A stretch of 62,489 nt of DNA, counting the filler, from Asterionella formosa (taxonomy: Eukaryota), in assembly GCA_002256025.1 (NCBI GenBank). It is 15 parts of 15 records of this genome, joined end to end, with 100 filler letters (N's around TTAATTAATTAA, not from the genome) between each part and the next. Parts side by side here need not be neighbours in the genome. Positions count along the whole stretch, not along the records: positions 41,756 to 45,825 come from NKIB01013739.1; 14 more parts are not named here. One strand, 5' to 3'. Shown here one piece after another: positions 4,080-62,489 of this stretch. The position numbers and the translations under genes were made by a program. A model generated the notes under the pieces. That model saw only the letters and a list, made by a program, of their open reading frames with translations, had not been told where the DNA came from and did no database searches. The stretch's first letter is position 1; every line of letters begins with the position of its first letter.

Positions 4080-4179
4080 NNNNNNNNNNNNNNNNNNNNN
4101 NNNNNNNNNNNNNNNNNNNNNNNTTAATTAATTAANNNNNNNNNNNNNNNNNNNNNNNNNNNNNNNNNNNNNNNNNNNN
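4080..4179. other. Artificial contig spacer, first of 14 (others start at 8259, 12438, 16616, 20796, 24969, 29142, 33314, 37486, 41656, 45826, 49993, 54160, 58326)
   Basis: Identical 100-nt N44-TTAATTAATTAA-N44 blocks giving stops in all six frames; contig lengths run from about 4080 down to 4064. Confidence 0.99.
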
Positions 4180-8258: not shown

Positions 8259-9251
8259 NNNNNNNNNNNNNNNNNNNNNNNNNNNNNNNNNNNNNNNNNN
8301 NNTTAATTAATTAANNNNNNNNNNNNNNNNNNNNNNNNNNNNNNNNNNNNNNNNNNNNTGCTTGATCAAAAAGACAAACAAGGATGTAACCACCATGACT
8401 CAAACTACCAGTACTGGTAGTCAAAAACGTCACACTTTTTCTGAAATCCTTGCTATTCCAGTATAGCCATGATACTAAAGTAGGAGAAACAAAGGATGAT
8501 GTCAATAGATTGACCACTTATTACTAAGTAAAATATTGGTGTAGTTTCTGATACTGTATGTTGTCCTGATATCAAATTGAGAAAAAGCATAAGATCATAT
8601 TCTGATGCCATTAATGATTTCTTTAAAAATAGTTGAAAAAGAGATTGATGGAAATGCTAGAACAAGAAGGAGCCAAGAGCAATCACAGACAGTACAAAAT
8701 GCCTGTGACAACAACATCTTGGTTCCCTCCTTGTCAAAAATCCTGCCAGCAATGATATCCAGTCACACTATCCCTCCCACTTCATACATGAATTTCTGAT
8801 AGGCCGCTCTGTTAAAGATGCAATGATGAACAGAGAGCATTGTTATCATACAATCTCCGATTCCGAGATGTGGAAGGGCGAAAAATTCGCAGACAACATT
8901 GGTGGGAAACTGGCAATGTTCAGGAAGGTTGGCATAAGAAAGCAAGGAATCCGTTGGGGTCTCCTGGATCTCCTTCATTGTAGAAGTGTAATCAAATAAA
9001 TGTTTTGGTGGAATCATTATATGGATGATCAAATGGGGCGACAAACTGGCATCTGTTTTCCAGGGGAGTGAACGGCCTACTCATCAAGCTAATTGGGCGC
9101 TATCGCTTTGATGCTATAATCTGTTACCTCCATGTCGAGACCCGTCCTGCCTGTTATGGCGGGCCTCTCTCAACTCATGCTGGCGGGCGGCGATTACCAG
9201 CTCCTTCAGGAAATCGCCACCATGCACCTACCCAACCCAACCAACACAACT

Positions 9252-9528
9252 GCTATGGCCTAAAAATGGGTGCCGAGACCAGCATACCGGTCTCGGATTC
9301 GGCCTAGTAAAGCCATAATTACCCATAGCTGTGTACCCACGCTCGCATTTATGACGACTAAAGTCGCCCTTTCCATGGCCTTGTCTTGTCACGTGCTAGG
9401 AGTAGGTAAGGAGATTGTACGTGGTCACGTGCTAGGAGTAGGTAAGGAGATTGTACGTGGGTACACAGCTTTAGGTAATTTTGGGTTAGGGTTACGGTTA
9501 CAGAGCCATAGCGCCACTACCGGTAGTG
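9252..9528. repeat. Nested foldback with a tandem duplication and a telomere-like tract
   Basis: GCTATGGC 9252 / GCCATAGC ending 9512; CCGAGACC-N8-GGTCTCGG 9273-9296; 25-bp IR 9317-9341 / 9456-9480 with 2 mismatches; 36-bp direct duplication 9388-9459; GGGTTAGGGTTACGGTTAC 9483-9501; palindrome CACTACCGGTAGTG 9515-9528. Confidence 0.85.
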
Positions 9529-9918
9529 CGTTTCAGTAAAAAAGTGCTGCTCTTTCTGATTATATAATATACATGGTGTGGATATATATACATGGCTTGC
9601 AGTTAAGGCGTGGGTACATTTGTTCAGTGGAAAACGTGTTTTTAACTATAAATGGTATCAATATATTTATGGCTCGCGGTTAAAGCGTGGGTATATTGCT
9701 TTAGTCGAAAAGTGTTGGCTTTTTATGAGTCTATATATATCTGGTTTGAATATGTATATATGGCAAGCGGTTATATGTACATATATATTACTCCAATATA
9801 TTCGATGTGCAATTCCTCTCCCATCATACTGTTATCTGTTGCCTATATGGCGTGCTATTGTAATGTACGTCCTGTTACTAAACCCTTACATAGGAGGTAT
9901 CCTTATCCTTTCTTGTAT

Positions 9919-9972
9919 TGTTTATTTAAGGGCAAGTGTTTATTTAAGGGCAAGTGTTTATTTAAGGGCAAG
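9919..9972 (+). repeat. 18-bp tandem repeat x3 (x2 in the other contig copy)
   Basis: TGTTTATTTAAGGGCAAG repeated three times. Confidence 0.95.
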
Positions 9973-9993
9973 AAATGGTCGTTTGCCTGTGGC

Positions 9994-11530
9994 AACACTA
10001 TTCGAATTTGGTTATGATCAACTCAAACACAACCTCCAAATATTTTCAAAAGGTCACATCAGGTGCAATAAGTTCCAACAGTGGTACGCATTTTAGTGAA
10101 TTTGTTACATCCATTGTCGAGCTCCCATCATAATGAATCGTAAGACAAAAGGTAAGCATCTGGATAAGGAGGATCGTTATGAGAAACCGCAAATTGACAT
10201 GACTACCAAACCAGCCATTGACGCGGCCACTACCTTGACAGCCTTATCGGCAAGGCGATTCAATCCCATTCCTCAAAAGCGTGCATTCATAACTAAAACG
10301 CCGCGTATACAACGCGCCCTCAGGAGTGATGGACCGGTCCAAACACCGGAGTCGCTAAAAAAAATACCAGGAGAGAAAAGGAAATTTCGACCTGATCCGG
10401 CTGAGGCAGACTCTGGATCATTGAAAGTTGCGCCATCGAAGGAGGAGGAGGAGGAGGAGGGTGTTCCAGTGCTGCGGGAAGAGTTGAAAGCAATACGATC
10501 TGATATGGCGCAGATGATGGGTGTGTTAATGGGTGCTATGTCTAACTTTCAGCCTCAGTGTCAGGATGAACTTCAAACATTAACAGAAGCGGTATTATCT
10601 CATGAATCAAAAGCCACAGTTGGACCAACACAACAGTTGTTTGAACCTGCACTGTGTCCTGTTTGTCAGGTGCAGTTAAACTTTCTGTCCGCTGCCGCAG
10701 ACCTACAGCTTCCTTTCAAAGCCGGCGTCGCCAAAGCGATGATGACACATTCCTGTAGGTGGCATAGAGAAGCGCCTGTATGGAATGCTCTTCCCAAGCT
10801 TGACTTGGATATGCGATCCTTGCATGGTAGGTCTAAGCCGACAACTGCAACAGTATTAGGTTTGGTTTCCTACAGTTTGGCATCCTCGGCTCGAGCAATT
10901 CGGTTGCCCAAAACAGATGGTTGGATTGACCGATGGAATGACGTCAAAAACAAGATAATATATCGCATTGGTTATGCCCAACGCTTATGTTCAGAATGCC
11001 CTATCTATCTGCGAGGAAGGACAAATTTCTTAGGTGCAACTGGAGAAACTCTCACGGCTCAGCAGCTGTGGTTAAAGAACGAAGCAGCAAAGTATTTGGA
11101 CAACCTTTGCATCAACACGGAGAGCTCTCCCCCAAGTGAACATTGGTATTCAATAACAACAGCTGCTAGAAAGCGGAATCTAGTCCAGATCTTCTTTCTA
11201 GACGCACAGTTCCATCGTGAATGCAGATTATTACCTCCTGAGACGTTACCCCCAAGTGAACACTTTCGAATCAATAGATCAATATAAGATATAGACAATT
11301 AACAAAAAGATTAGTAGATGCTAAAATATGAATTGAGATAGATCAATATATAATAGGAACAAATCACAAAAGCATTAGCAGATGTTTAAATATGAAATGA
11401 GATAGATGATACACAAAGTTACAATTGGGAACAATCAGCACCATGTAGGGTATAGATTAAAAAATCCGGGTTGTGACATGTAAATTGGAGGTTGTGTTTG
11501 GGTTGATCATAACCAAATTCGAATAGTGTT
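9994..11530. repeat. 46-bp inverted repeats (9994-10039 and 11485-11530) enclosing the 384-aa ORF
   Basis: AACACTATTCGAATTTGGTTATGATCAAC(T/C)CAAACACAACCTCCAA, 45/46 identical; no flanking target-site duplication. Confidence 0.93.
10133..11287 (+). CDS. Hypothetical 384-aa protein (basic N-terminus, poly-E, coiled coil, CPVC / HSCRWH / CSEC motifs); probably element-borne
   Basis: Long intronless ORF, GC-richer than its flanks and open in both contig copies. No family recognised. Confidence 0.7.
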   Translation: MNRKTKGKHLDKEDRYEKPQIDMTTKPAIDAATTLTALSARRFNPIPQKRAFITKTPRIQRALRSDGPVQTPESLKKIPGEKRKFRPDPAEADSGSLKVAPSKEEEEEEGVPVLREELKAIRSDMAQMMGVLMGAMSNFQPQCQDELQTLTEAVLSHESKATVGPTQQLFEPALCPVCQVQLNFLSAAADLQLPFKAGVAKAMMTHSCRWHREAPVWNALPKLDLDMRSLHGRSKPTTATVLGLVSYSLASSARAIRLPKTDGWIDRWNDVKNKIIYRIGYAQRLCSECPIYLRGRTNFLGATGETLTAQQLWLKNEAAKYLDNLCINTESSPPSEHWYSITTAARKRNLVQIFFLDAQFHRECRLLPPETLPPSEHFRINRSI

Positions 11531-11775
11531 ATGGATTGCTCCAATATTGATGAAGTTATTGACAAGTCAGTAGTGGTAATAATCATCACCATGTAGGGTG
11601 TAGGTGAAAAAATCCCGGCTGTGACATGTAAATGATGAGTAGCATTGATCCATTGTGAATCAACGGAATACCATCTTATTCGGTACTATCTTCCAATGAG
11701 ATGAGTCGTTCTTAGGTATTGATTTCTCCAATATTGATGAAGTTATTGACAAATCAGTAGTGGTAACAATCATCA

Positions 11776-12437
11776 CCCATCTAAGCCGCGTATTACGTGA
11801 AGTGACCATCACGTAAATAAGCCTAGTTGATTTTGAATGGATCACATGAATTAGTTGAATACATCAAAATGCTTACTTGAATATATCTATATATTATCTG
11901 AATACATCACGTTAATTATTTGATCAGAGTATCATGCATGCATTCCTGATCATCACTATATTACGTGATCACCTTCACATAATTATTTGAAATACTTCAC
12001 ATAATTATTTGAAATACTTCAATTAATTCTGTAATTCAGTTCACATTGCCTTAAATTTTTGTTCACGTAATTCTATAATATGGTTCACGTAATTTATTAA
12101 ATTTTTTTACGTATTTTAAAAGTACTATCAAATAATGTTGATTACTAATTCAACAACCGGTATTTCACATTACATGGGAAGCAAATCTCGATATGCAATC
12201 AAACAAAGCAGTTCTTTCAGAATGGCATCTTCAGTCTTGAGAAGGCAGGCATTATGAGAAGTCTGTAAGGACAATGCAAGACAAACATAAGCCATGCATT
12301 CTGAATGAAGAAATCATTCATTCTTGAAGAGGCATTATTGCACGAAGTTGCAACATGAATGCATCACACACTGGCTTCCTTCTTGTCCTTGAAATGACTT
12401 GCTTCTTCATTGACCTGCAGAGATTTTCATAACAACA
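11776..12437 (+). mobile_element. DNA-transposon terminus (CMC/EnSpm-like) with subterminal TTCACGTAAT-type repeats
   Basis: Starts CCCATCTAAGCCGCG; about ten ATCACGT/TTCACRT motifs follow in both orientations. The same ~138 bp occurs in a different context at 41517-41655. Superfamily is inferred from the CCC start. Confidence 0.55.
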
Positions 12438-12537: not shown

Positions 12538-12736
12538 CAGTGATCAACGGCTGTATCAGTGATACAGCATTGGTCAGGGGTCCAAAAACTGTATCAGTGA
12601 TACACCCATGATACACTGGTGATCAGACCAAAAAAACCGTTGGTGATACACAAAAAAAACCAAACCGCCATTTTTGTATCATATTTCGGCGATGATACAC
12701 CAATGACAACAAATAACAGAATGATAAGAACGGCCC
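12538..12736. mobile_element. End of a PIF/Harbinger-like non-autonomous element
   Basis: Repeated TGATACA/TGTATCA subterminal motifs ending ...AACGGCCC followed by TTA, which fits a GGGCC terminus and TWA target. Confidence 0.45.
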
Positions 12737-13078
12737 TTAGTCTGCAGTCTGTATGCATGGCTGTGTTCAATTTTTGGGGTCTTGAGGTAGACACCGTACA
12801 TAGAACTAGTATTTGCAAACCCCCTGACCCTGCTGTATATAATATTTTTCGCCTAAAAACCCTTGTTACAATCTCCCCCCCCTCAGAGTTATATCAAATA
12901 CATCGGAATTCAATAAAAGAGAACTCGACTAACATCCATTCTATACTTTGATGTCAGTTCAGGAAACGATTTGTATATAAGGATTAGTTAATAAGCTTAT
13001 ATATTCAACTAATACTTCTACTTCTAGTTAGATACTTCACTTTGAATTCAAAAAGGGTCGAATAAGAAGACAACAAAC

Positions 13079-14704
13079 ATGGCAATGTATGCAAGGGTTC
13101 CTGTGATTCCTTTGATCAAAGACTACAATGTATTGACTATCAAGACTAAAACATTCAGAGTTGCTTTAACCGGTGGAAGGTTTGAATTGTTTGATCAAGA
13201 TATGATCGATGGAAGCTCGGTGGAAGAATTGTTAATTGGAGTGAGTCAATTTCGTGGCAGGGCTAACACATGTGCCTTAAGCCCTGCAGATACCTTTTCC
13301 TACTCTAAAAGGTGTTTGACCGACATTGCCTTATCGGATTGGTTGAATGTGGAAGTACACCCAGAAGATCAATCTTACAATAGTTTTGATGAAGCGATGG
13401 TTTTATGGTTAGACGATTGTTTACCAAACGAGAGTTTTCAACGTCAACGAGAATGGATGCTACGTTTTTTATCTAAACCGTTTTCTATGTTGGTAATGGA
13501 TTTCGGAGCTCGTATTAAAACTTTAAACAGGCTACTTCAACTAATGCCTCATCCAGAAGATCAAAACGGATTGTCAAAAGAAGATATGCGGATTATCATT
13601 ATCCGTTCTATGCCCAATGAGTGGCAACAAGAGTTTGAATTAAATCATGCGAAGACTTCAGACCAATCGATTCGCTCGGTTCTCGCTTCCTTCGAGAGTC
13701 AACAATCGTTTAAAAACCGAAACAAGCATCTTCCCAAGAACAGTTTTCAAGCAATCACACAAAATCGTCTTCGTATTGCTGAAAGCAATCGTGTCATGCG
13801 TCAAGAAAACGAGCGTGTCAGTCGTCAATTCTACAACGATAATTTTACTCCAAGTGGTCGTGGAAGAGCGCGTGCTATTGTCAATGCAGCCGGACGCGCA
13901 TGGGATCGTCAGGCGACTGTTCGTCATCAAGCTCTACAAGCCAGTCGTGCGTACCATGATTATCGTGGTCCTTGCCCGGTACATCCTGAAGTTGCACATA
14001 CTTGGGGCAATTGTTTCCACAATCCTCGTACTCAAGGTGGTCAAGCAGGTCGCATGGCTGGTCGTCATAATGGACGTGGCTGTTCCAGTTTCGGTAGACA
14101 AGGACATTTTGGTGGTAGTGGAGGCGGTTCACACAGCAATCCTACGGAAAGCTACCATACTGACACTGCTAACCCTGTGCCTGTTCCACATGCTCGTATG
14201 TTAAATGCATGGGGTCATAATACTCATCCATCCGGTTGGGGTACCATGCCACGTGCCGATCCTACCGAGAATACATCTGCCCAGAAATTTTCAGTGGTCA
14301 CGAACCCTCCTGCTGGTCAGATAGTGACTTTTGTCCCTACTACACAACATCAGATTGCTGATCGCCATCACAGAGGTATGTGCGATAATAGCGATGCTAT
14401 TTGTAATGACTCGTTGAGTATATCTCACGTTAGTCATCAACTGAATAATATTGTTTACTTACAGGTTGAATACACTATGGATACCGCTGTTAATGTAACG
14501 CGGGACATATATAACTGTATTGATGGACATGACATTCCACATACATATCAGGGCCCAATTCCGGTTTCCTGTTTTACTTCTAAGGATATATTAACATCAA
14601 TTGATTTGATTCCGATGTCCTTTTTCGCGCCACGATTGGTGGATGATATACCTATGCATAAAATACTACGACTATTATCAATAATGGAGGATCCTTATCC
14701 TTAA
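13079..14704 (+). CDS. gag: Gypsy Gag running into a frameshifted protease
   Basis: SMPNEWQQEF; zinc knuckle variant CPVHPEVAHTWGNC; RG-rich tract; begins 40 nt after the LTR. Confidence 0.8.
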   Translation: MAMYARVPVIPLIKDYNVLTIKTKTFRVALTGGRFELFDQDMIDGSSVEELLIGVSQFRGRANTCALSPADTFSYSKRCLTDIALSDWLNVEVHPEDQSYNSFDEAMVLWLDDCLPNESFQRQREWMLRFLSKPFSMLVMDFGARIKTLNRLLQLMPHPEDQNGLSKEDMRIIIIRSMPNEWQQEFELNHAKTSDQSIRSVLASFESQQSFKNRNKHLPKNSFQAITQNRLRIAESNRVMRQENERVSRQFYNDNFTPSGRGRARAIVNAAGRAWDRQATVRHQALQASRAYHDYRGPCPVHPEVAHTWGNCFHNPRTQGGQAGRMAGRHNGRGCSSFGRQGHFGGSGGGSHSNPTESYHTDTANPVPVPHARMLNAWGHNTHPSGWGTMPRADPTENTSAQKFSVVTNPPAGQIVTFVPTTQHQIADRHHRGMCDNSDAICNDSLSISHVSHQLNNIVYLQVEYTMDTAVNVTRDIYNCIDGHDIPHTYQGPIPVSCFTSKDILTSIDLIPMSFFAPRLVDDIPMHKILRLLSIMEDPYP

Positions 14705-16615
14705 TACATGAACGGGTTATGCCGCAAGGTATTTCTTTGTCTAACGAGATTTCCCAATTAATACATACCATAGCTGGTACTTATTCATCTCATGCCAGTG
14801 TCATGCTGTATGACCTGATTTTACCAGAATTTAATCGATCCGCTCATATTTTACAACAAAAATGTCAAGTCTTCAATGGTCTATGCACATTTGATGTTAT
14901 TTTAGGACGTGATTTCCTCCGTCAAGTTGGTTTAACCATTGATTTCTTAAATAACACCATGTCCTGTATGGATATGATTGTTCCTTTGCATCCTCTCACA
15001 TTCTTTGATGATGGAGAACGTTTACGAGATGTATTATTATTTTGATGCACCTATGATTGTGGAATCTTCATATGCGCTGGAACTTAAAGCTGCTGAATAT
15101 AATTACGTAAATATTGATACAGCGGTGGATAAACAGACACATTTGACAACAATACAACGATCATGTTTACGAACTATGTTGGTTAAATATCAAACATTAT
15201 TTGATGGCAAATTAAAAGTCTATCCTCATAAACAGGTACATTTGGAATTATTATCAAATGCTGTCCCTCGTCATCAACGAGCATATCCGGTCGCTCACAT
15301 TCATTTAGAAGTTTTCAAAACCGAATTACAACGATTATGTGATATTGGAGTCCTACAAAAATGTGGTGCTTCTAAATGGGCATCTCCCACATTTATTATT
15401 CCAAAAAAGGATGGAAGTGTCCGATGGGTATCAGATTTTCGTGAACTTAATAAAGTCATCAATCGCAATATATACCCTTTGCCTCGAATACAAACTATTC
15501 TCACTAAACGTGCTGGATATGTATTTTTCACCATTTTTGCATTGGATGTGGAGAGTCAAAACTTGTGCATTATTTCCACTCCATTTGGTTTATATAAATA
15601 TTTACGTCTCCCTATGGGGGTAAAACAATCATCTGACATTGCCCAAGGAACCACCATGGAAAAGGTTTTTGGTGATTTAGATGACATGGACATTTATAAT
15701 GATGATGAAGGTTGTTTTTCAATGAATTTTTCGGATCACCTTCATTTATTGGACACTATTTTAAATCGTTTACAGACAAATGGTTTTAAAATTAATCCAT
15801 CTAAGTGTGAATGGGCCGTCCAAGAGACAGATTGGTTAGGCCATTGGTTAACTCCTAATGGACTGAAACCTTGGTCTAAAAAGGTCCGAGCATTAATTAA
15901 TATGTCTTCGACTACCAATCTTAAACAAGTTCAATCATTTCTCGGTGCGATTACCTACCATCGAGACATGTTTCTTCGACGCTCTGACGTTCTCGGAAAA
16001 TTCACGGATTTAATTGGAACTGGTCCATTTGTCTGGTTACCTATCCATCAACAAGCTTTTGAAGAAATGAAGGCATTGTTAGTTGCAGATACACTCATGC
16101 ATTATCCTGACCATAATCTTCCTTTTCATATCTTTACTGATGCCTCTGATTATCAATTAGGGTCGGTCATTATGCAAATGATCTCCCAGTTGCTTATTAT
16201 TCTCGCAAATTATCTGCTGCTCAAAAGAATTATACTACTATTGAAAAAGAATTACTTTCTGTGGGAGAAACTTTCAAAGAATTTCGCTCTATGTTATTGG
16301 GCGCAGTTCTACATGTTCACGCTGATCATCGAAATCTTATTTATAATACATTACATACACAACGTGTTCTACGATGGCGACTTTACATTGAAGAATACCA
16401 TCCTACTTTTCATTATGTGAAAGGGACTGACAATGCTATTGCAGATTCCATCTCTCGCCTCCCGAGGCTTGAGTCTTTGGTGGAGGATGATATTGATATT
16501 GGACCGAAATCTCCAACATCAACTTCCACTTCTACTTTTTCAATTGAATTAGATGATGAACCTCTGCTTACATGTTTCCTTAATCATCCCATCTTGACAG
16601 ACAATATTCAATATC
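14680..16615 (+). pseudogene. pol: Gypsy pol, frameshifted
   Basis: Protease FDVILGRDFL; RT WASPTFIIPKKDGSVRWVSDFRELNK, YPLPRI, YLRLPMG, active site decayed to YNDD; RNase H FTDASDYQLG, DHRNL, RVLRWRL, DNAIADSISRL. Confidence 0.92.
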
Positions 16616-17584: not shown

Positions 17585-17712
17585 CTAATATTGCCCATCA
17601 TTGAAGAATAATTGTTTTTCCTCTGTATGTCAGCATTTCGGCAAGACAATTTACACCAATTGCCCCTCGATTTTCCAGCCCTCGTCTTGCTGAAATCGGC
17701 AAGGGGTCTACT
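17585..17712 (+). repeat. Dispersed repeat end B (hairpin plus GGGGTCTACT); also at about 43740-43870
   Basis: Shared CCAATTGCCCCTCG.TTTTCCAGCCC...TTGCYGAAATCGGCAAGGGGTCTACTT, then abrupt divergence. Confidence 0.85.
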
Positions 17713-18042
17713 TTACTGCGGCCCTCGGCTTAACCCTAGTTTGAAGAAAACGTCGCTAGGGTTGTAAAATCGGCATGGAACAGGGAGTTTGCTGCTATGA
17801 GTTCCCATGATTTGACTGTCCATTTGAATAATTGAATTAAATAGGAGTCGGCGCCAGACAGATAGAATTCCATTTTAAACAAAAGAAAATGATATTTAAA
17901 TGTTTAATTCCGATTGCAATATTTTGTCGACTGTTGAAAAAGCCGATCGGGTCGACTTTTTGGAAGAGGATTGCTCTACATCTACGGGTTTTCATGACGA
18001 TTAAAATAGATAGCCGTGTACCCTATAGCGTCAGGAGTTAAC

Positions 18043-18162
18043 TTCTGGAGAGAAGTGGCAGTTATGTATCGTAAATTTTTTGAAAAGCTTCGTAGCCCCT
18101 TTTTTGAATACTTTAGCGGTAGATATGAATCTATGATACATAACTGCCACTTCTCTCCAGAA
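18043..18162. repeat. 120-bp MITE-like palindrome
   Basis: Perfect 28-bp IR TTCTGGAGAGAAGTGGCAGTTATGTATC at 18043-18070 / 18135-18162; no clear TSD. Confidence 0.85.
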
Positions 18163-18225
18163 ATGGGGTCCTTACCATATCTTTATACATAGATCATACC
18201 CCTAAGTTGAGCAATGACAGTATCA

Positions 18226-19117
18226 AGTGGTGAGTATAACAGTGACACACTGGATCAGGAATGTAGATACTATTTATCCAATTTGAGATTTGATTGCTTC
18301 CACGTTCCATTGTGATTGCTTCCTTCATTGTTTGTCATTTTGTACTGTCGTGTTGGTTTGATTGTATCTATCTACACAAGGGCCGAAAATTTACCAATGC
18401 CTAATCTTTGAAGATGAATTGTTGTTGATCTTATTTTTTGATTTGCATAGTCACTGACCATGATATCAATATTGCTGCCAAGCATTGATTTTCTTGTCCT
18501 AATGCGCTGTGCTACATTTCTAATCAGAGTTTATATCACATGATACATATCAATACTCAGCTAGGTAGATTCGATAGCGAAGCAGCCTGGCAATCAAGCT
18601 TGCTCAGAATGGAATGATTGGAGTTGTTTGGTGGGAGGAACAACTGTGGGCGGAAGGACTTCTGTCAGGCTATGGCTGTGTGCATGGTTGCAGCAACCAG
18701 ATTATCTACACTATATAACAATGCAGACCTCAATTGGGTTCAGCCTTTTCTTCTTTTCAGTATTATTTCGCTCTTCTGTTGTGTCATGGAAAAAATTCAA
18801 TGTTTCCTGTGTAAGTACTGCAATTTAATTTACCATTTGAAGCTGCTTATTATATTGCATATCAAACTTTGGTTGCTCCAAACATCATGTTCAATTTTCA
18901 TTGATATTGTATGTTGCAGTAATTCTCGTGTGTTTGACACTTGTTTTACCATTTCTATGAATATTACCGTTATTTGGCTGTCATGCTAAAATATGCCATT
19001 TTAGTGCCAAAAAATTCGAATTGCCCCTAATTAAAAATTGTTTCTGAAATTATTTAGAGCTGAAAAATTGCTTAGAAGTACCCGAGTGGCAAGATGATTG
19101 CTGGAGCGGGAATCGCT
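18226..19117 (+). mobile_element. Diverged non-coding repeat ending in end A; homologous to 44537-45507
   Basis: Colinear similarity over about 0.9 kb (e.g. CTTTGGTTGCTCCAAACATCATGTTCAATTTTCATTGAT), ending GCTGGAGCGGGAATYGC. Confidence 0.8.
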
Positions 19118-41516: not shown

Positions 41517-41655
41517 CATCTAAGCCGCATATTACATGAAGTGACCATCACGTAACAAATTAGCCTAGTTGATTTTGAATGGATCACATGAATTAGTTGA
41601 ATACATCAAAATGCTTACTTGAATATATCTATATATTATCTGAATACATCACGTT
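41517..41655 (+). mobile_element. Third copy of the CATCTAAGCC transposon end
   Basis: Near-identical to 11778-11913, with CpG-to-CpA changes. Confidence 0.85.
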
Positions 41656-41755: not shown

Positions 41756-42505
41756 CATGTTTGAAGCAATAATTGAATTCATAATTGCCTGAGTGGGATT
41801 GGCACTGTCAGTGGAGGTGGTTGTTTGAGATACCCCATGCTGATTCAACAATGATGCCATGATTGACATCATCATCATGTTCATCATGTTCTGTTGCTGC
41901 AGTTGTTGCTGCTGTTGTTGTTGCTGCTGCAGGTTATCAGTATCAGATCGAGTAGCCTTGTGAAGCAACTGTGTCGAAAGAAGAGAAAGCTTTTTTTCAA
42001 CAGGCCCAGTATTGTTTGACACTGCCTTATCTCTAAATCGAGGGGACACCATAGGTCGAGGAAATCTTGAACCAGAAAAATTAGCATAAGCGGCAGATGT
42101 TGCTCCACCATTGTCTTCACTCTCCTCAGAAATCGCTATAAAATCATCATCAACATTTGGCTCATCAATATTGGGCTCATTGGGCTCTCTCTCTATTCCA
42201 AGATCAGTGGATTCAATCTCAGCACTTGCACTTGTATCTGCTCGTTGCTCGATTCTTCGAAAAATTTGTTTGGCATATTTCACCTCAGCAGGGCATGTTG
42301 GGTCCCCAGTTGGTTTCTTAACTTTGTGCAGTTGTGAAAACTTTCGGCGAAGTGAAGGTCCTGTCCGTTCTTTGTCTGGGAAATTCTCGTTGTGCTGTGA
42401 TGCAACAACTTCCCATTCATGGGACCCAATTGGCAGGTGAGTAGAAATGGTTTCCAGCAATGAGAGAATCTCATTGATCCTGAACTGTTGACCCCGACTC
42501 TGCAT
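41756..42505 (-). CDS. Myb/SANT-like DUF6818-type protein, 3'-truncated; start uncertain
   Basis: RG..F...E...LL......LPIG..EWE.VA..HN..FP...RT..SLRRKF..L...KKPTGDP.CP..VK.AK.I; poly-Q and Met-rich tail. Confidence 0.8.
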
Positions 42506-43279
42506 GCTTCGGCGAGCTCTTGGAAACGTTGGTGCTCGCCTGGCAGTTGCTGTTCTTGAAACTGAACTAGTAGGAGCACGTGAAAAATCGTTGTTGTTCC
42601 TTGATGGGGACTGAGTAACCCCAGAAACACCAAATTTGGTCAACACAAACACAAATTTTGGGGTTATGGGTACAACGATTTGTGTTATAATACACATGAT
42701 ATAATAATTTTTTATTATCAGAGCGCGCCCACTACCAGCACCAATCAGCACCAACACCCAACATCTACCACTATCACATAATTGTCTTCACCACCACAAG
42801 TCATCATTTCCAGCACCCGCTCCTTAAGAACCGATTAATTTATCAGTTGCTGCTCCTCCAGGCCCGATCTGAAAATTTCTGAAATTTCGATTTGACAACA
42901 ACAAAAAAGTGTGTGTTGACAAATGTTAATGAAAATGCATTGACAAATTTTCACATGATTTTTCTGCTGACCCATTATCTTTTTCACTATTTATTCTTCT
43001 ACTCTCTGTTCTTCCCTAGTTGTCATGTCTTACCTTTTGTTTTCCAGTTCATACTTTGGTTGCTGAAAAATTTCAAATTTGTTGATACTTGTTACATGCT
43101 TGTCTGGCTTTTCATGCATATTCCTTCATTTTTGGTGCTCCTTGCATTTTCGATGTGGTATCGATTTTTAACATTCTGATTCAATATTCAACTCCATTCG
43201 ATTTTCAAACATTCCTATGGAAATTCTACTCATGACATGTTTTTAACCATCCCTGCTCATACCTGAAATTGAGTGACTG

Positions 43280-43870
43280 TCGAAAAATCCACTGTGCCCC
43301 TCCCCTATATTGCCCCTAAATAAAAAGATTACTTAGAGATACCAAAACTTACTTAGACACCCACAGTTCTCATCAAAAAGCAAGACGATAGCTAGGGTGG
43401 GAATTGCTGAAGGCAATACACGCCCGAGGTGGTCTCTTGCCTGCAAGTATACATGTGTTCGAGGCTGGGTGGTGTGAGTAGGTTGACCATACAAGTGGCA
43501 CCCCGGCGCTGCGAGAAGGTCACCCTACGAGTGCCATCCCAGTCAAGTACACATGGATACGAGAAGGCAAGTAGCCGCCGAGAAGGGTATTGTTGAGGCA
43601 ATTCCCGCTCTAGCTATCGTCGCGTCATTCGCTTACCTACTGCCCACAAATTTAGCATAAATGTCAATTTTAGCCTACTATTGCCCATCATAAAAAATAT
43701 ATTTTGGATATTTCCTATCTTCACCTCGAAAATTGCCAAAGGTCCGATATTACCCATCATTAACATATATTTTGCTTATTTCCTATCTTTGCATTTTGGC
43801 AAGACAACAGACGCCAATTGCCCCTCGGTTTTCCAGCCCAGGGATTGCCGAAATCGGCAAGGGGTCTACT
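43280..43870 (+). mobile_element. Composite repeat end: end A, rod, inverted end A, end B
   Basis: 43280-43408 matches 49204-49328; 43597-43621 is the inverted end A; about 43740-43870 matches 17585-17712. Confidence 0.7.
43384..43621 (+). ncRNA. Candidate rod-like structured RNA (or ssDNA hairpin), unclassified
   Basis: About ten stacked helices with 13 G-U pairs on the + strand and purine-rich internal loops. Expression is unknown. Confidence 0.5.
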
Positions 43871-44536
43871 TAAGGAAACCATTTTATATACTAAACAGAT
43901 TTTGATAATTTATATCTAGAATTCACCTCGTTTTTGTTTGTCTCCTGAAAAGTGGACTCCGGCAATTCACCTTTCACCATGCCAATCGTCGTCCATCATG
44001 ACCGGTTTGAAGCGAAATCAGTTCCATGATGACACCAGTAGCGATTCTTTGTCTAACGGATGCGGTTGGTTGTTGAATTGCTTGTCTTCTCGAGGCATTC
44101 ATGTAGTCGCATCGTCCATATTTCGTCGGACGAACGATGATATCGATACATCTGATGTTGTTGGCAAGTTTTTGCTCCGGTCATGTATGTAATGATGCTT
44201 AACGGATATTCTACCGGTTACCGGTAGTCATCATTTCTACATAGGTACTAAAAACAACCATGCATGGTTTAAGCTACCCGGTATGCTTTAACGCTTACTT
44301 TGAACACGTTATAATATTATCTCTGTAGACTCGGTATTATTTTTACGAGACCTGAAATGTTGAATTATATTGTTCACATATTCATTGATTTTACGTACTG
44401 TATGCCCGATTTCGTCCTCACAAATATAGTTCTCACTCTATCTTGCCTGCCTTTGCTCTATTCAGGCTTGCAATAGGCAACGTTTGTCTTTCTTTGATCC
44501 CATCGTCTGCTGCTTGTTATGCTAGTTGAAGCGGAT

Positions 44537-45507
44537 CGGTGAGTACAACAGTGAAACACTGAATGTGGATTGTAGATTGTATTTATCAACTTTCCGATTT
44601 GATTGCTTCCGTGGTTTGTTTTGATCGCTTCCATCGTTGTTTGTCGTTACGCACTGTCGTTTTGTTTCGATTGTACATATCTACATAAGAACCAATGCTT
44701 TTATCAATGACTACTCATTGAAGATTGCCGTTGTTGATTTGTATAGTCATTGACAATGATGTCAATATTGCCACCAAGGAATGCTTTTCTTGTACTAACG
44801 CGCTTTGCTACATTTCTACTGCGAGTTCGTATCAGAAGCTACATGAATACTCAGCTAGAGAGAGTCAATAGTGCTGGAGCAGCATGGCGATCATGCTTGC
44901 TCAGAATGGAATGATCAGGGTTGCCTGTTTGGTGGGCGGAGAGGAATGACTGTGGCGGAAATACTTCTACTGGTGTCAGGCTACTACAGCGATGCGCATG
45001 GTTGAAGCAACCAGACACATTGACGATAAATAACGATGCAGGTCTACATTGGGTTGAGCTTTTTTTCTTCTTCTTTCGGTCTTCGATTGTATATGGTGAT
45101 GGAAAGTTAATGTTGCCTGTGTAAGTACTACAATGATTCACAATGCATACATCTCCATTGGAACTCTTATTTTTTATTTCATTTCTAACCCAAAACAATT
45201 TTTTCTATTTCTCATTTGATGCTACTTATTACATCGCATTTCATACTTTGGTTGCTCCAAACATCATGTTCAATTTTCATTGATGTTGCATGTTACAATC
45301 ATTCTCGTGTGTTTTACGCTTGTTGTACCATCTCTATGCATATTACCGATATTCTGGTTGTCATGCTAAAATCGGCAATTTTATTGCCGAAAAATTCGAT
45401 GCGCCCCGTATTGCCCATAAATAAAAATTACTTATGAAATTACTTAGAGCCTAAAAATTACTTAGAAGTACCCGAATGGCAAGACGATAGCTGGAGCGGG
45501 AATTGCC
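44537..45507 (+). mobile_element. Repeat homologous to 18226-19117, ending in end A
   Basis: Ends GGCAAGACGATAGCTGGAGCGGGAATTGCC. Confidence 0.8.
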
Positions 45508-45673
45508 GGTATGATGGTGAATGGTGAAAGGCATATCATTTCGCTGAGCTCTGAAGAAAAACGTTTAGCTGAAATGACGTAAAGATCGTGGTACTGGTAC
45601 GGTACCTGGTACCAGGGTAGCGTAAAATATGATTCGCTCAATCCAAAAACTCAGGTTGCTGCAGAAAGAAACC

Positions 45674-45825
45674 ATGATGAAGTTTATTCTCTGGTATTTC
45701 GCTTCCTTTTCTGTTGTTTCTCGGGTGCCGGCCTTTTCGACCCAATGGTCGAAAGAAACGTTGCTTTCTTTTGCTTTGCAAGCGAAAAAGAAGACAAAGG
45801 GTACCAAATTAGCATCACCTACAGG
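45674..45825 (+). CDS. 5' end of a probably plastid-targeted gene
   Basis: MMKFILWYFASFSVVSRVPA-FS..ALQAKKK, open to the contig edge. Confidence 0.55.
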
Positions 45826-49023: not shown

Positions 49024-49203
49024 TATATTATTATATCACGCAATTTAGTATCTAAGTCACTCCGCCTGTAATGTACAAAAGTCGACAGTGCACATACTCA
49101 CACGCTAATCAGGTTTGAGGTGGTCCATGCATTTTTGATGTGTCTAAACTTTTTCCCATGAAAATTCTTCTCCTGACGTTGCTCGATGGTCCCTGCTGCT
49201 CAC

Positions 49204-49328
49204 TGCCGAAAAATCCAAGATGCCCCATATTGCCCCTAAATAAAAAAATTACTTAAAGAAACCAATAATTACTTAGACACCCACAGTTCTCATCGAAAAG
49301 CAAGACGATAGATAGGGTGGGGATTTCC
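49204..49328 (+). repeat. End A copy (same subfamily as 43280-43408)
   Basis: TATTGCCCCTAAATAAAAA..TTACTTAGACACCCACAGTTCTCATC.AAAAGCAAGACGATAG.TAGGGTGGG. Confidence 0.85.
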
Positions 49329-49362
49329 TTTTTTTAGACAACACACAGTACCAGGTACCTGG

Positions 49363-49992
49363 TGAAGTATCTAACTAGAAGTAGTAGTATTTGTTGAATA
49401 TATGAGCTTATTTGTTAATCCTTGTGTGTAACTCGTTCTCCAAGTCGACACCAAAGTATACAATGAGGGTTAGTCGAGTTCTCTCATTATTGAGTTCTGA
49501 TACATATATGATATAACACTAACCCTATATACATCTGTATTGATGCGCAAGATCGCTCACTCTCCCACACCAAGGGAAAACCTTTTACCTTTGAAAAGGT
49601 TTGATGTAATGGATATTAATTCGTTCCGTTGTATGCATAGTTTGTTGAAAAGTAACTGTACCATAGGATTCGATAGTGATGTAGGAATAACAATACGTCA
49701 AGTATCTCCTGGATTCTTTACAAAATACATGAAATGTATATGATGAAAATTGATAGAGGGAAAATTTAACAGATGTGTTTGGTTTGTTGATTGAGAATGA
49801 GATGAGTTGTTTGATTGAGAATCAATTGTATATCCAGCAATTGTCTATCATGTATTGAGTAATATTCCAGAGGATATTGAATATTGTCTGCCAAAATTGG
49901 ATGATTGAGGGAACAGGTAAACAAAGGTTCATCATCTACTTCAATTGAGAAAGTAGAAATGGATGTTGATGCTGAAGATTTCGGTCCAATAT
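49363..49992 (-). mobile_element. Gypsy 3' remnant: pol fragment, PPT (49560-49571), 197-bp 3' LTR (49363-49559)
   Basis: IGPKS..STFSIE.DDEPL..C.LNHPIL.DNIQY overlaps the end of the contig-4 element; GTVT...TERINI..IKPF; GGGAGAG|TGA...TCA. Confidence 0.85.
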
Positions 49993-57910: not shown

Positions 57911-58425
57911 GAGTATTTGTCTCGATAGCAATAGCAGCGCACAACTTGGAAGGTATTGATCGTTGCTGTTTGCAAGCAGTCCGGGTTCAGAGTTAATCTT
58001 TTGTCGTTGAAAGTAATTGTGGCACACGGAATGTACTCTTTGATTCCACAACGATGTCGTTGATTGAAAATGCTGCAGGCGTTTTTGTTGCAGTTGCTCG
58101 CGATGTTTCTACCTTTGAGCAGATTGTAGTCTGCAAATGCCTCGGTCCGAATGAAGTCAACACGATTATTACTCACAGTGCAGAAGAGGCCAAACTAAAA
58201 AGTAACTCCGTGCGATCTGTTCGCTTGCCGTATTTCTTACTCCACCATGAGAAATGGAGCTACAATTACTTCAATTATGCGTACGTTGTGATCGATGAGT
58301 ACGCCGTCAAAACGAATCCCCTGCANNNNNNNNNNNNNNNNNNNNNNNNNNNNNNNNNNNNNNNNNNNNTTAATTAATTAANNNNNNNNNNNNNNNNNNN
58401 NNNNNNNNNNNNNNNNNNNNNNNNN

Positions 58426-61400
58426 TGTTGTTATGAAAATCTCTGCAGGTCAATGAAGAAGCAAGTCATTTCAAGGACAAGAAGGAAGCCAGTGTGTGAT
58501 GCATTCATGTTGCAACTTCGTGCAATAATGCCTCTTCAAGAATGAATGATTTCTTCATTCAGAATGCATGGCTTATGTTTGTCTTGCATTGTCCTTACAG
58601 ACTTCTCATAATGCCTGCCTTCTCAAGACTGAAGATGCCATTCTGAAAGAACTGCTTTGTTTGATTGCATATCGAGATTTGCTTCCCATGTAATGTGAAA
58701 TACCGGTTGTTGAATTAGTAATCAACATTATTTGATAGTACTTTTAAAATACGTAAAAAAATTTAATAAATTACGTGAACCATATTATAGAATTACGTGA
58801 ACAAAAATTTAAGGCAATGTGAACTGAATTACAGAATTAATTGAAGTATTTCAAATAATTATGTGAAGTATTTCAAATAATTATGTGAAGGTGATCACGT
58901 AATATAGTGATGATCAGGAATGCATGCATGATACTCTGATCAAATAATTAACGTGATGTATTCAGATAATATATAGATATATTCAAGTAAGCATTTTGAT
59001 GTATTCAACTAATTCATGTGATCCATTCAAAATCAACTAGGCTTATTTACGTGATGGTCACTTCACGTAATACGCGGCTTAGATGGGTGATGATTGTTAC
59101 CACTACTGATTTGTCAATAACTTCATCAATATTGGAGAAATCAATACCTAAGAACGACTCATCTCATTGGAAGATAGTACCGAATAAGATGGTATTCCGT
59201 TGATTCACAATGGATCAATGCTACTCATCATTTACATGTCACAGCCGGGATTTTTTCACCTACACCCTACATGGTGATGATTATTACCACTACTGACTTG
59301 TCAATAACTTCATCAATATTGGAGCAATCCATAACACTATTCGAATTTGGTTATGATCAACCCAAACACAACCTCCAATTTACATGTCACAACCCGGATT
59401 TTTTAATCTATACCCTACATGGTGCTGATTGTTCCCAATTGTAACTTTGTGTATCATCTATCTCATTTCATATTTAAACATCTGCTAATGCTTTTGTGAT
59501 TTGTTCCTATTATATATTGATCTATCTCAATTCATATTTTAGCATCTACTAATCTTTTTGTTAATTGTCTATATCTTATATTGATCTATTGATTCGAAAG
59601 TGTTCACTTGGGGGTAACGTCTCAGGAGGTAATAATCTGCATTCACGATGGAACTGTGCGTCTAGAAAGAAGATCTGGACTAGATTCCGCTTTCTAGCAG
59701 CTGTTGTTATTGAATACCAATGTTCACTTGGGGGAGAGCTCTCCGTGTTGATACAAAGGTTGTCCAAATACTTTGCTGCTTTGTTCTTTAACCACAGCTG
59801 CTGAGCCGTGAGAGTTTCTCCAGTTGCACCTAAGAAATTTGTCCTTCCTCGCAGATAGATAGGGCATTCTGAACATAAGCGTTGGGCATAACCAATGCGA
59901 TATATTATCTTGTTTTTGACGTCATTCCATCGGTCAATCCAACCATCTGTTTTGGGCAACCGAATTGCTCGAGCCAAGGATGCCAAACTGTAGGAAACCA
60001 AACCTAATACTGTTGCAGTTGTCGGCTTAGACCTACCATGCAAGGATCGCATATCCAAGTCAAGCTTGGGAAGAGCATTCCATACAGGCGCTTCTCTATG
60101 CCACCTACAGGAATGTGTCATCATCGCTTTGGCGACGCCGGCTTTGAAAGGAAGCTGTAGGTCTGCGGCAGCGGACAGAAAGTTTAACTGCACCTGACAA
60201 ACAGGACACAGTGCAGGTTCAAACAACTGTTGTGTTGGTCCAACTGTGGCTTTTGATTCATGAGATAATACCGCTTCTGTTAATGTTTGAAGTTCATCCT
60301 GACACTGAGGCTGAAAGTTAGACATAGCACCCATTAACACACCCATCATCTGCGCCATATCAGATCGTATTGCTTTCAACTCTTCCCGCAGCACTGGAAC
60401 ACCCTCCTCCTCCTCCTCCTCCTCCTTCGATGGCGCAACTTTCAATGATCCAGAGTCTGCCTCAGCCGGATCAGGTCGAAATTTCCTTTTCTCTCCTGGT
60501 ATTTTTTTTAGCGACTCCGGTGTTTGGACCGGTCCATCACTCCTGAGGGCGCGTTGTATACGCGGCGTTTTAGTTATGAATGCACGCTTTTGAGGAATGG
60601 GATTGAATCGCCTTGCTGATAAGGCTGTCAAGGTAGTGGCCGCGTCAATGGCTGGTTTGGTAGTCATGTCAATTTGCGGTTTCTCATAACGATCCTCCTT
60701 ATCCAGATGCTTACCTTTTGTCTTACGATTCATTATGATGGGAGCTCGACAATGGATGTAACAAATTCACTAAAATGCGTACCACTGTTGGAACTTATTG
60801 CACCTGATGTGACCTTTTGAAAATATTTGGAGGTTGTGTTTGAGTTGATCATAACCAAATTCGAATAGTGTTGCCACAGGCAAACGACCATTTCTTGCCC
60901 TTAAATAAACACTTGCCCTTAAATAAACAATACAAGAAAGGATAAGGATACCTCCTATGTAAGGGTTTAGTAACAGGACGTACATTACAATAGCACGCCA
61001 TATAGGCAACAGATAACAGTATGATGGGAGAGGAATTGCACATCGAATATATTGGAGTAATATATATGTACATATAACCGCTTGCCATATATACATATTC
61101 AAACCAGATATATATAGACTCATAAAAAGCCAACACTTTTCGACTAAAGCAATATACCCACGCTTTAACCGCGAGCCATAAATATATTGATACCATTTAT
61201 AGTTAAAAACACGTTTTCCACTGAACAAATGTACCCACGCCTTAACTGCAAGCCATGTATATATATCCACACCATGTATATTATATAATCAGAAAGAGCA
61301 GCACTTTTTTACTGAAACGCACTACCGGTAGTGGCGCTATGGCTCTGTAACCGTAACCCTAACCCAAAATTACCTAAAGCTGTGTACCCACGTACAATCT

Positions 61401-62489
61401 CCTTACCTACTCCTAGCACGTGACCACGTACAATCTCCTTACCTACTCCTAGCACGTGACAAGACAAGGCCATGGAAAGGGCGACTTTAGTCGTCATAAA
61501 TGCGAGCGTGGGTACACAGCTATGGGTAATTTTGGCTTTACTAGGCCGAATCCGAGACCGGTATGCTGGTCTCGGCACCCATTTTTAGGCCATAGCAGTT
61601 GTGTTGGTTGGGTTGGGTAGGTGCATGGTGGCGATTTCCTGAAGGAGCTGGTAATCGCCGCCCGCCAGCATGAGTTGAGAGAGGCCCGCCATAACAGGCA
61701 GGACGGGTCTCGACATGGAGGTAACAGATTATAGCATCAAAGCGATAGCGCCCAATTAGCTTGATGAGTAGGCCGTTCACTCCCCTGGAAAACAGATGCC
61801 AGTTTGTCGCCCCATTTGATCATCCATATAATGATTCCACCAAAACATTTATTTGATTACACTTCTACAATGAAGGAGATCCAGGAGACCCCAACGGATT
61901 CCTTGCTTTCTTATGCCAACCTTCCTGAACATTGCCAGTTTCCCACCAATGTTGTCTGCGAATTTTTCGCCCTTCCACATCTCGGAATCGGAGATTGTAT
62001 GATAACAATGCTCTCTGTTCATCATTGCATCTTTAACAGAGCGGCCTATCAGAAATTCATGTATGAAGTGGGAGGGATAGTGTGACTGGATATCATTGCT
62101 GGCAGGATTTTTGACAAGGAGGGAACCAAGATGTTGTTGTCACAGGCATTTTGTACTGTCTGTGATTGCTCTTGGCTCCTTCTTGTTCTAGCATTTCCAT
62201 CAATCTCTTTTTCAACTATTTTTAAAGAAATCATTAATGGCATCAGAATATGATCTTATGCTTTTTCTCAATTTGATATCAGGACAACATACAGTATCAG
62301 AAACTACACCAATATTTTACTTAGTAATAAGTGGTCAATCTATTGACATCATCCTTTGTTTCTCCTACTTTAGTATCATGGCTATACTGGAATAGCAAGG
62401 ATTTCAGAAAAAGTGTGACGTTTTTGACTACCAGTACTGGTAGTTTGAGTCATGGTGGTTACATCCTTGTTTGTCTTTTTGATCAAGCA
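58426..62489 (-). repeat. Reverse-complement copy of 8359-12437
   Basis: Same ORFs and repeats mirrored; 46-bp IRs span 59333-60872. Confidence 0.97.
59576..60733 (-). CDS. Second copy of the hypothetical protein (385 aa)
   Basis: Differs from 10133-11287 by one extra E, S>L and E>K. Confidence 0.7.
   Translation of the reverse strand: MNRKTKGKHLDKEDRYEKPQIDMTTKPAIDAATTLTALSARRFNPIPQKRAFITKTPRIQRALRSDGPVQTPESLKKIPGEKRKFRPDPAEADSGSLKVAPSKEEEEEEEGVPVLREELKAIRSDMAQMMGVLMGAMSNFQPQCQDELQTLTEAVLSHESKATVGPTQQLFEPALCPVCQVQLNFLSAAADLQLPFKAGVAKAMMTHSCRWHREAPVWNALPKLDLDMRSLHGRSKPTTATVLGLVSYSLASLARAIRLPKTDGWIDRWNDVKNKIIYRIGYAQRLCSECPIYLRGRTNFLGATGETLTAQQLWLKNKAAKYLDNLCINTESSPPSEHWYSITTAARKRNLVQIFFLDAQFHRECRLLPPETLPPSEHFRINRSI

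Follow-up and report, generated by a model that had tools for sequence, protein, structure and literature searches.

A 238-nt hairpin rod of Asterionella formosa is the head-to-tail meeting point of two copies of an abundant non-coding mobile element

The window analyzed here is a stretch of 62,489 nucleotides (nt) from the freshwater alga Asterionella formosa (GenBank assembly GCA_002256025.1). It is composed of 15 non-contiguous pieces of ~4.07 kb each, separated by N44-TTAATTAATTAA-N44 spacers (4080-4179, 8259-8358 ... 58326-58425). Homologies end at the spacers, and thus neighboring pieces are non-contiguous DNA. The subject of this study is a rod-like inverted repeat of 238 nt at 43384-43621, whose genuine genomic context is the piece 41756-45825 only. 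The host is eukaryotic; Xrn1, a prenyltransferase subunit, JmjC, RING and other proteins are encoded in the window.

Two copies of one repeat family lie head to tail in this piece, both on the + strand. The upstream copy, designated E-left (43276-43407), is a 3'-terminal fragment of a different subfamily. It shows 86% identity to 49202-49325 (80% when aligned globally), and only 64% identity to the 3' end of the downstream copy. The summed contig depth, which is unsuited to ranking parts of one stretch, climbs steeply from about 43289, near the start of E-left. The downstream copy, E-right (43408-45506), is a complete repeat unit of 2,099 bp with an A+T-rich body, and no coding capacity was detected in it; it contains five open reading frames (ORFs) of at least 70 amino acids, none of which matches Pfam.

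The unit consists, from 5' to 3', of a 189-nt imperfect hairpin, a 24-40-nt repeat S, the body, and S', which is complementary to S. In E-right, the hairpin occupies 43408-43596 (+) and contains loop modules of CGAG/CGAG with G·A mismatches, based on the folds and the alignment of five copies. It is followed by the subterminal inverted repeat S at 43597-43636 (+). The 3'-terminal inverted repeat S' is at 45468-45507 (+), and its end lies ~1.9 kb downstream of the right arm of the rod. S and S' are 85% matched over 40 nt (34 of 40 positions, and 23 of the first 24). The outer 5' arm of the rod is the 3'-terminal inverted repeat of E-left (43384-43407, +), and the outer 3' arm is S of E-right. 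In the rod, two copies of a very high-copy, ~2.1-kb non-coding mobile element meet head to tail. S' base-pairs with S there, and the resulting helix stacks on the hairpin, so that the full 238-nt rod requires a 3' end directly in front of a 5' end. An earlier description of this DNA, made from the sequence alone (the sequence-only reading), considered the 238 nt as one fold unit built into a repeat terminus. The terminus was borne out, and it lies inside the rod. The single fold unit was not, since the outer 24 bp are formed between two copies, by the 3' end of the first and the subterminal repeat of the second.

Five copies were compared: the window copy and four short contigs (L001 to L004) obtained by one pattern scan of metagenome contigs. 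Pattern scans of viral contigs and of prokaryotic genome contigs gave no match. The hairpin 43408-43596 was found in all five copies, full-length in three and shortened in two. Contigs from two DNA runs (X1 and X2) and two RNA runs (X15 and X16) were also aligned to 43100-43900 (801 bases). The family is represented on these 801 bases by 28,493 contig pieces in X1 and 1,481 in X2. Parts of the 43100-43900 stretch were found in 20 of the 24 runs listed, spanning 16 studies, and the runs carrying the repeat are labeled as algal or freshwater.

The boundary of the two copies is placed at 43407|43408 (TTGC|TGAAGG), within the outer helix and one pair from the GAA/GA bubble, because three of the four metagenome copies diverge upstream and many contigs break at 43403-43407. 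L002, L003, and L004 have unrelated DNA upstream of TGC|TGAAGG (alignment A1). Contigs with unlike sequence were observed in X1 before 43404 (n=22), before 43405 (n=32) and behind 43407 (n=26), and in X2 before 43403 (n=16) and before 43405 (n=20); the agreement of these unlike ends at 43403-43407 is low, 0.36-0.45. Loose contig ends before 43403-43405 are seen in all four runs aligned. The remaining metagenome copy, L001, matches both ends of E-right at 90-95%. Its upstream part is 95% identical to 45079-45506 and unlike E-left, indicating a second, independent head-to-tail junction. The two junctions are joined at the identical nucleotide. Head-to-tail junctions account for two of the eight element ends examined (one of the four 3' ends in the window and one of the four loci). 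E-left and E-right belong to different subfamilies, and therefore they are not one duplicated insertion. The interior of the rod is present once in the window, while its outer 24-25 nt recur at 45506, 49325, and 19116 in BLAST comparison, always with the homology to the left of these termini. It is very probable that the rod represents a transposon terminus and junction.

The trinucleotide TGC at the junction (43405-43407, no strand assigned) ends all three solo 5' flanks, and a single TGC is present at both junctions. The solo 5' flanks end with AATTGC, ATTGC, and TGC. These endings repeat the final 6, 5, and 3 nt of the 3' terminus, and the beginning of S is complementary to them. Three of five 3' termini end with TGC (E-left, E-right, and L001), and those of two decayed copies end with CGC and TCC. 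The unlike letters behind 43407 in the 26 X1 contigs have a consensus starting with CGGTATAAT, near the flank after E-right (CGGTATGAT, 45507-45515). These letters may belong to a conserved extension of the 3' end, or to a preferred target as its right half. A subfamily with an altered S core ...GGCAATTCACAAACTAGC... at 43604-43610 is represented by 24-25 contigs in X1 and 7-9 contigs in X2.

Other members of the family are present in the window. A diverged copy at 17585-19116 (+) has the same type of 3' end and is colinear with E-right at 74-84%. Its 5' hairpin is not recognizable; a diverged mini-hairpin upstream of 17585 was dropped because the alignment was gappy and unconvincing. A 3'-terminal fragment of the E-left subfamily is at 49202-49325 (+) and abuts a long terminal repeat (LTR)-type retroelement. 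Subterminally, near both ends, ATTGCCC with an A-rich run behind it is repeated directly, not inversely (43309, 43680, 43818, and 45410). ATTACTTAG is repeated three times ahead of the 3' end (45425-45466), and there is a 43-nt internal direct repeat (43679-43721/43748-43789). The direct subterminal motifs and the internal repeat may be protein-binding sites. A 102-amino-acid ORF across S has only three small unnamed protein matches, which are uninformative on the host range.

Three other assignments of these sequences were rejected. The stretches 43276-43407 and 45385-45506 are not LTR-like direct repeats, as they are 64% alike and three of the four metagenome copies begin at the hairpin. A Penelope-like partial tandem with a ribozyme was discarded in the absence of a hammerhead match and with the two 3' ends coming from different subfamilies. 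A link to the reverse transcriptase (RT) at 13-16.6 kb was also discarded, for it lies in a separate piece, the homology ends at the spacer, and it belongs to a protease-bearing LTR-type element.

Both strands of 43384-43621 were folded against shuffled controls. As RNA, the + strand has a minimum free energy (MFE) of -135.6 kcal/mol (shuffle mean -77.7, z -12.54, none of 200 shuffles equal), and the - strand has -105.8 kcal/mol (z -7.81). With DNA parameters, the values are -61.7 for + and -50.3 for -. The MFE structure of the + strand contains 87 pairs, 13 of which are G-U, and that of the - strand contains 4 G-U pairs. The rod is thus present far beyond chance, and the 13 G-U pairs claimed for it are found in the MFE structure. 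The G+C richness (55% in the rod versus 41% in its 4.07-kb piece) and three sites of CGAGAAGG at 43512, 43560, and 43579 are likewise as described before. The ratio of 13 G-U to about one A-C pair, in contrast, hinges on the alignment of loops. Plain alignment of one arm against the other gives 10 G·T, 4 A·C, 15 purine·purine and 4 pyrimidine·pyrimidine oppositions.

The strand asymmetry is a property of the whole family, not of the window copy alone. The + fold is stronger than the - fold in all five copies, by ~3 to 30 kcal/mol: the RNA MFE for +/- is -135.6/-105.8 in the window copy, -150.3/-121.7 in the L001 rod, -110.4/-90.8 in L004, -42.3/-36.5 in L003 and -39.2/-36.4 in L002. The numbers of G-U pairs are 5-13 on + and 2-4 on -. 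Nine G-U pairs are common to all three full-length copies. At least five of the 13 G-U pairs in the window copy are trivial in origin. Three are in the outer helix, which joins the ends of two subfamilies. The other two, 43473/43533 and 43475/43531, are C-G in the family majority, indicating decay of the window copy from CpG to TpG. The strand bias that the sequence-only reading proposed stands for the family.

The near-consensus L001 rod shows a more regular pattern. CGAG occurs ten times at 15-21-nt spacing, and CTCG does not occur. In 5,000 shuffles of the L001 rod, CGAG occurs 2.1 times on average and seven times at maximum, and no shuffle reaches ten. Opposed CGAGs across the rod constitute five G·A/A·G loops, ~16 nt apart, and each CGAG/CGAG module pairs as C-G, G·A, A·G, and G-C. 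Tandem G·A in the CGAG/CGAG context is unusually stable in DNA and RNA alike. CTCG/CTCG, the mirror on the opposite strand, would yield pyrimidine mismatches. Purine·purine mismatches outnumber pyrimidine·pyrimidine ones 14 to 4 in L001, and G·T outnumbers A·C 6 to 2.

The outer parts of the hairpin, 39 nt and 75 nt, do not differ among the five copies, in contrast to the flanks and the apex. Among the 17 variant positions listed in the rod, 7 are paired, and a standard pair is kept at 7 of 7 on the + strand versus 3 of 7 on the - strand. Paired positions are under-represented among the listed variants (Fisher p 0.004), with the caveat that the loops of the rod are rich in CpG. Four changes from G-C to G-T are observed, all C>T, three of them at CpG. 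L002 and L003 have the common hairpin without ~100 apical nt and in different flanks, and 11 of the 15 joints listed skip 39-170 nt around the apex. The apical ~100 nt are dispensable for spread.

The window copy has decayed mainly at CpG. The L001 rod contains 21 CpGs and the window rod 13, eight of the 21 being lost. Seven rod positions are A/T in the window copy and G/C in the family (43445, 43473, 43475, 43489, 43493, 43500, and 43545), and all are changes from CpG to TpG or CpA. The family letter is the X1 majority call at six of them; at 43489, G is in the X1 minority, yet it is present in L001 and L004. The remaining difference from the majority, 43556 G>T, is a transversion and breaks a pair.

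A search of Rfam with 42000-45000 at E up to 1 gave only a chance match at 42698-42719 (20.9 bits versus a cut-off of 65.5), in agreement with the sequence-only reading, which recognized no RNA class in the rod. Contigs from RNA libraries cover the element: a 383-nt contig in X15 over 43418-43798, and an 873-nt contig in X16 over 43432-43644 with 20 differences from the window. Such contigs give neither strand nor ends. A diverged variant of the hairpin is glimpsed in RNA-library contigs. The role proposed before was a transposon-encoded non-coding RNA (ncRNA) or a transposition/replication signal. Of the two, the signal agrees better with the anatomy than a free-standing ncRNA does.

Several known systems resemble the family in part. 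In IS200/IS605 elements (HUH, Y1 type), base pairing next to a subterminal hairpin recognizes ends and targets. Their end hairpins are imperfect and strand-specific, with cleavage and target sites immediately 5' to them. By analogy, a short internal "guide" for end and target would fit the AATTGC, ATTGC, and TGC flanks. IS200/IS605 elements differ in that they are prokaryotic and have ~20-nt hairpins at both ends and 4-nt guides, compared with one 189-nt hairpin and 24-40-nt pairing in the present family.

Replitrons, which are eukaryotic Y1 Rep elements, have short terminal direct repeats, insert into a short target in a specific orientation, and carry a hairpin close to one end (PMC10288648). 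The short direct terminal repeats are shared with the present family. Their describer reports none in diatoms or oomycetes, and asymmetric inverted repeats or a long hairpin are not described there. Helitron2 has asymmetric terminal inverted repeats and a hairpin, and pairing of the repeats is proposed to set the replication endpoint (PMC3627910). Helentron and HINE have subterminal inverted repeats and a terminal stem-loop (PMC4067079), and tandem insertions and joined-end circles of Helitron-like elements are on record (PMC5148889).

The strongest likeness is to group 2 of Helitron-like elements (Helitron2/Helentron and HINE/DINE-1). In this group, one inverted repeat is terminal and its partner is subterminal, corresponding to S' at the 3' end and S 189 nt from the 5' end, and a stem-loop fills the gap from the subterminal repeat to the other terminus. 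High-copy non-coding derivatives, tandem copies and joined-end circles are further points of likeness. The closest layout is "HLE2-reverse" of Fusarium FoHeli3-5 and Phytophthora proto-Helentron, with a 5' stem-loop and no strong hairpin opposite (PMC11417382). The order in this "reverse" type is a 5' stem-loop, the left inverted repeat and, at the far end, the right inverted repeat.

We infer that the hairpin and S constitute a cis-acting signal which is read on one strand, the + strand of the window. There is about an even chance that the rod is a signal for single-strand end recognition and end joining with the layout of Helitron-like group 2. That the enzyme is of HUH type has a little less than an even chance. 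The likeliest machinery would be a rolling-circle transposase (Rep/HUH) like that of Helitron-like group 2. Once such a single strand is displaced or excised, S would bind the 3' terminus and bring both ends next to each other on the rod, forming a nicked helix. This nicked helix would be open to cleavage, to circle joining, or to being recognized as the replication end. Targets of the form (A)(A)(T)TGC would be chosen by the same short pairing or by the same nick motif. As insertion would occur behind ...TTGC, old 3' ends would be the best targets, and new copies would be placed directly behind them. The strand would be marked by the G·T pairs together with the five G·A modules of CGAG/CGAG, which would stabilize the + rod and weaken the - rod.

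Several observations weigh against this end-recognition reading. Pfam scans of the 104 ORFs in the window (62 kb, non-contiguous) showed no Rep, helicase, DUF6570 or other transposase, and hence no RepHel. No gene for Fanzor/TnpB, HUH/Rep, RT or DDE, the kinds considered by the sequence-only reading, is linked to the element in the available DNA. The T/T insertion site described for group 2 is not seen; the 5' flanks end with ..AATTGC, ..ATTGC, and ..GTGC, and the 3' ends with ..TTGC. The 189-nt hairpin with ~90-bp arms and five G·A modules is far from the 5-10-bp palindromes described for group 2, and the inverted repeat is 24-40 nt versus 8-16 nt. The CGGTATAAT letters behind 43407 in X1 are accounted for by no model considered. 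Compensatory changes, whose absence the sequence-only reading had named as evidence against selection on the fold, were found at none of 73 pairs in three copies, which are 90-95% alike and too similar to be informative; four pairs are changed on one side and five are broken. The retention of 7 of 7 pairs on + could also stem from a C>T mutation bias on that strand. The counts of variants are among the positions listed, and 18 further differences over the 801 bases are outside the list. The asymmetry is inherited from a single master copy, and so it is one observation, not thousands.

The main rival, though an unlikely one, is a DIRS-like, non-autonomous retroelement moved by RT together with a tyrosine recombinase. 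In that case, S and the hairpin's 3' arm would form the "internal complementary region" that restores or splints the circle junction in single-stranded complementary DNA, and integration would occur by recombination at the shared TGC. In DIRS-1, this region is essential for retrotransposition; it is a contiguous internal sequence complementary to both extremities, which lie side by side as the circle junction. DIRS elements are described as having a species-specific trinucleotide at either end and preferring insertion into their own copies (PMC7192593). The complementarity, the flanking trinucleotide and the preference for own copies all have counterparts here. As in the DIRS-1 geometry, an internal region (around 43503-43621) complements the junction, here 43384-43502. 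TGC precedes 3 of 3 solo 5' ends and is at 3 of 5 3' termini, with one TGC per junction and flanks from different copies, and the element is covered by contigs from X15 and X16. In DIRS elements, however, the complementary regions are tens of nt long, 88 nt in DIRS-1, and are located close to the right end, apart from the 5' terminus (PMC7192593), whereas here the region is ~120 nt and is fused to the 5' terminus as a hairpin. The present element is non-coding and has no linked gene for RT or tyrosine recombinase; the sole RT in the window (14978-16615) is of LTR type with an aspartyl protease and lies in a separate piece. Coverage by RNA-library contigs is no proof of transcription. High-copy non-coding derivatives of DIRS are not known, no search for them having been made, and this also counts against a DIRS-like origin. 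Similarly doubtful is that the element belongs to an undescribed group or to a strongly derived rolling-circle lineage, in which the ~90-bp strand-coded rod would act as splint and guide. Such a rod would hold its own 3' and 5' ends and pair with (A)ATTGC targets in the style of IS200/IS605, in an algal nuclear genome.

The other explanations are less likely still. The rod could be a passive palindrome, an inverted duplication which arose once in a master copy and hitch-hiked, with the asymmetry due to mutation bias and chance and the head-to-tail junctions due to recombination between copies. The absence of covariation, the single ancestral state inherited by all copies, the plain CpG decay of the window copy (13 CpGs versus 21), and the frequent apex deletions, which are typical of unstable palindromes, are consistent with it. 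Decay is not expected to produce ten regularly spaced CGAGs without a CTCG, or to leave the outer 39 and 75 nt of the hairpin invariant beside variable flanks and apex. The position of S exactly at the foot of the hairpin, its match to the 3' end, and two independent junctions at the same nucleotide are not expected either, and this explanation is considered rather improbable. A function at the RNA level, in which the transcribed hairpin is a precursor of small silencing RNAs against the family or a structured ncRNA, is improbable. The G-U-tolerant + fold (z -12.5) is in its favor, as are the RNA libraries, which are 6 of the 24 runs listed, each with 24-30% of the sampled words, and the contigs covering the hairpin in both RNA runs aligned. 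Those contigs give no information on strand, ends, or abundance, and may reflect DNA carried over; in X15, two contigs of low depth run from outside flank into the element, as would be expected of read-through or DNA. There is no Rfam match, the apical 100 nt are dispensable for spread, and a role as RNA leaves unexplained both the match of S to the 3' end and the copy boundary inside the stem. A cut-and-paste (DDE) transposon, or a 238-bp foldback MITE (miniature inverted-repeat transposon) with 25-bp terminal inverted repeats, is highly improbable. The outer 24-25 bp do resemble terminal inverted repeats flanking a short palindromic body, and 16 of 23 positions agree between S and the hairpin's 5' start. 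The homology with the upstream copy, however, continues unbroken into the left "repeat", and in the solo copies the element begins at TGAAGG, a site within the would-be MITE. No inverted-repeat relation links the true 5' terminus to the true 3' terminus, ATTGCCC and ATTACTTAG are subterminal motifs in direct, not inverted, orientation at both ends, and none of the five copies is a 238-bp unit with its own flanks.

Taken with these alternatives, the rod is best read as two transposon ends combined around a strand-coded terminal hairpin of exceptional length, a known kind of terminal signal in a new form. No account of this family was found in the literature searched, in which Repbase and Dfam were not covered. 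Recognition and joining of ends in group 2 Helitron-like elements are still hypothetical, built on 8-16-nt repeats and tiny stem-loops. The present family has the same layout in an exaggerated and strand-coded form, with the copy boundary at a helix junction, which makes the pairing model directly testable. The repeat is among the most abundant of its host, as the contig pieces of one run on 801 bases indicate, and its recurrence in freshwater metagenomes of 16 studies affects the assembly and annotation of such data. It also calls for caution, since a striking "rod-like RNA" can be a composite of two transposon ends.

Other features of the window were also observed. An ORF of at least 344 amino acids at 41756-42787 (-), ~500 nt upstream of E-left, encodes DUF6818 (E 6e-14) with a poly-Q tract and is cut by the spacer. 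Pieces of an LTR-type retroelement with aspartyl protease, RT and RNase H are at 13046-16615 (+) and 49362-49992 (-), the latter directly adjoining the E-type 3' end at 49325. The retroelement end carries a GTACCAGGTACC-type motif, which also flanks copies of the family at 45590-45615 and in L004. The pieces 8359-12437 and 58426-62489 are reverse complements of each other, 99.4% identical over 4,082 nt, and may represent one locus included twice, two alleles, or a large inverted duplication. A 139-nt repeat with 95.7% identity is shared by three pieces (41517-41655, 11778-11913, and 58950-59085), and in one of them the repeat ends at a spacer. Two imperfect palindromes are unrelated to the rod: one of 56 nt (82%) at 11974-12032, and one of 84 nt (74%) at 12538-12618, which lies by a spacer and consists of GTGATACA-like repeats.

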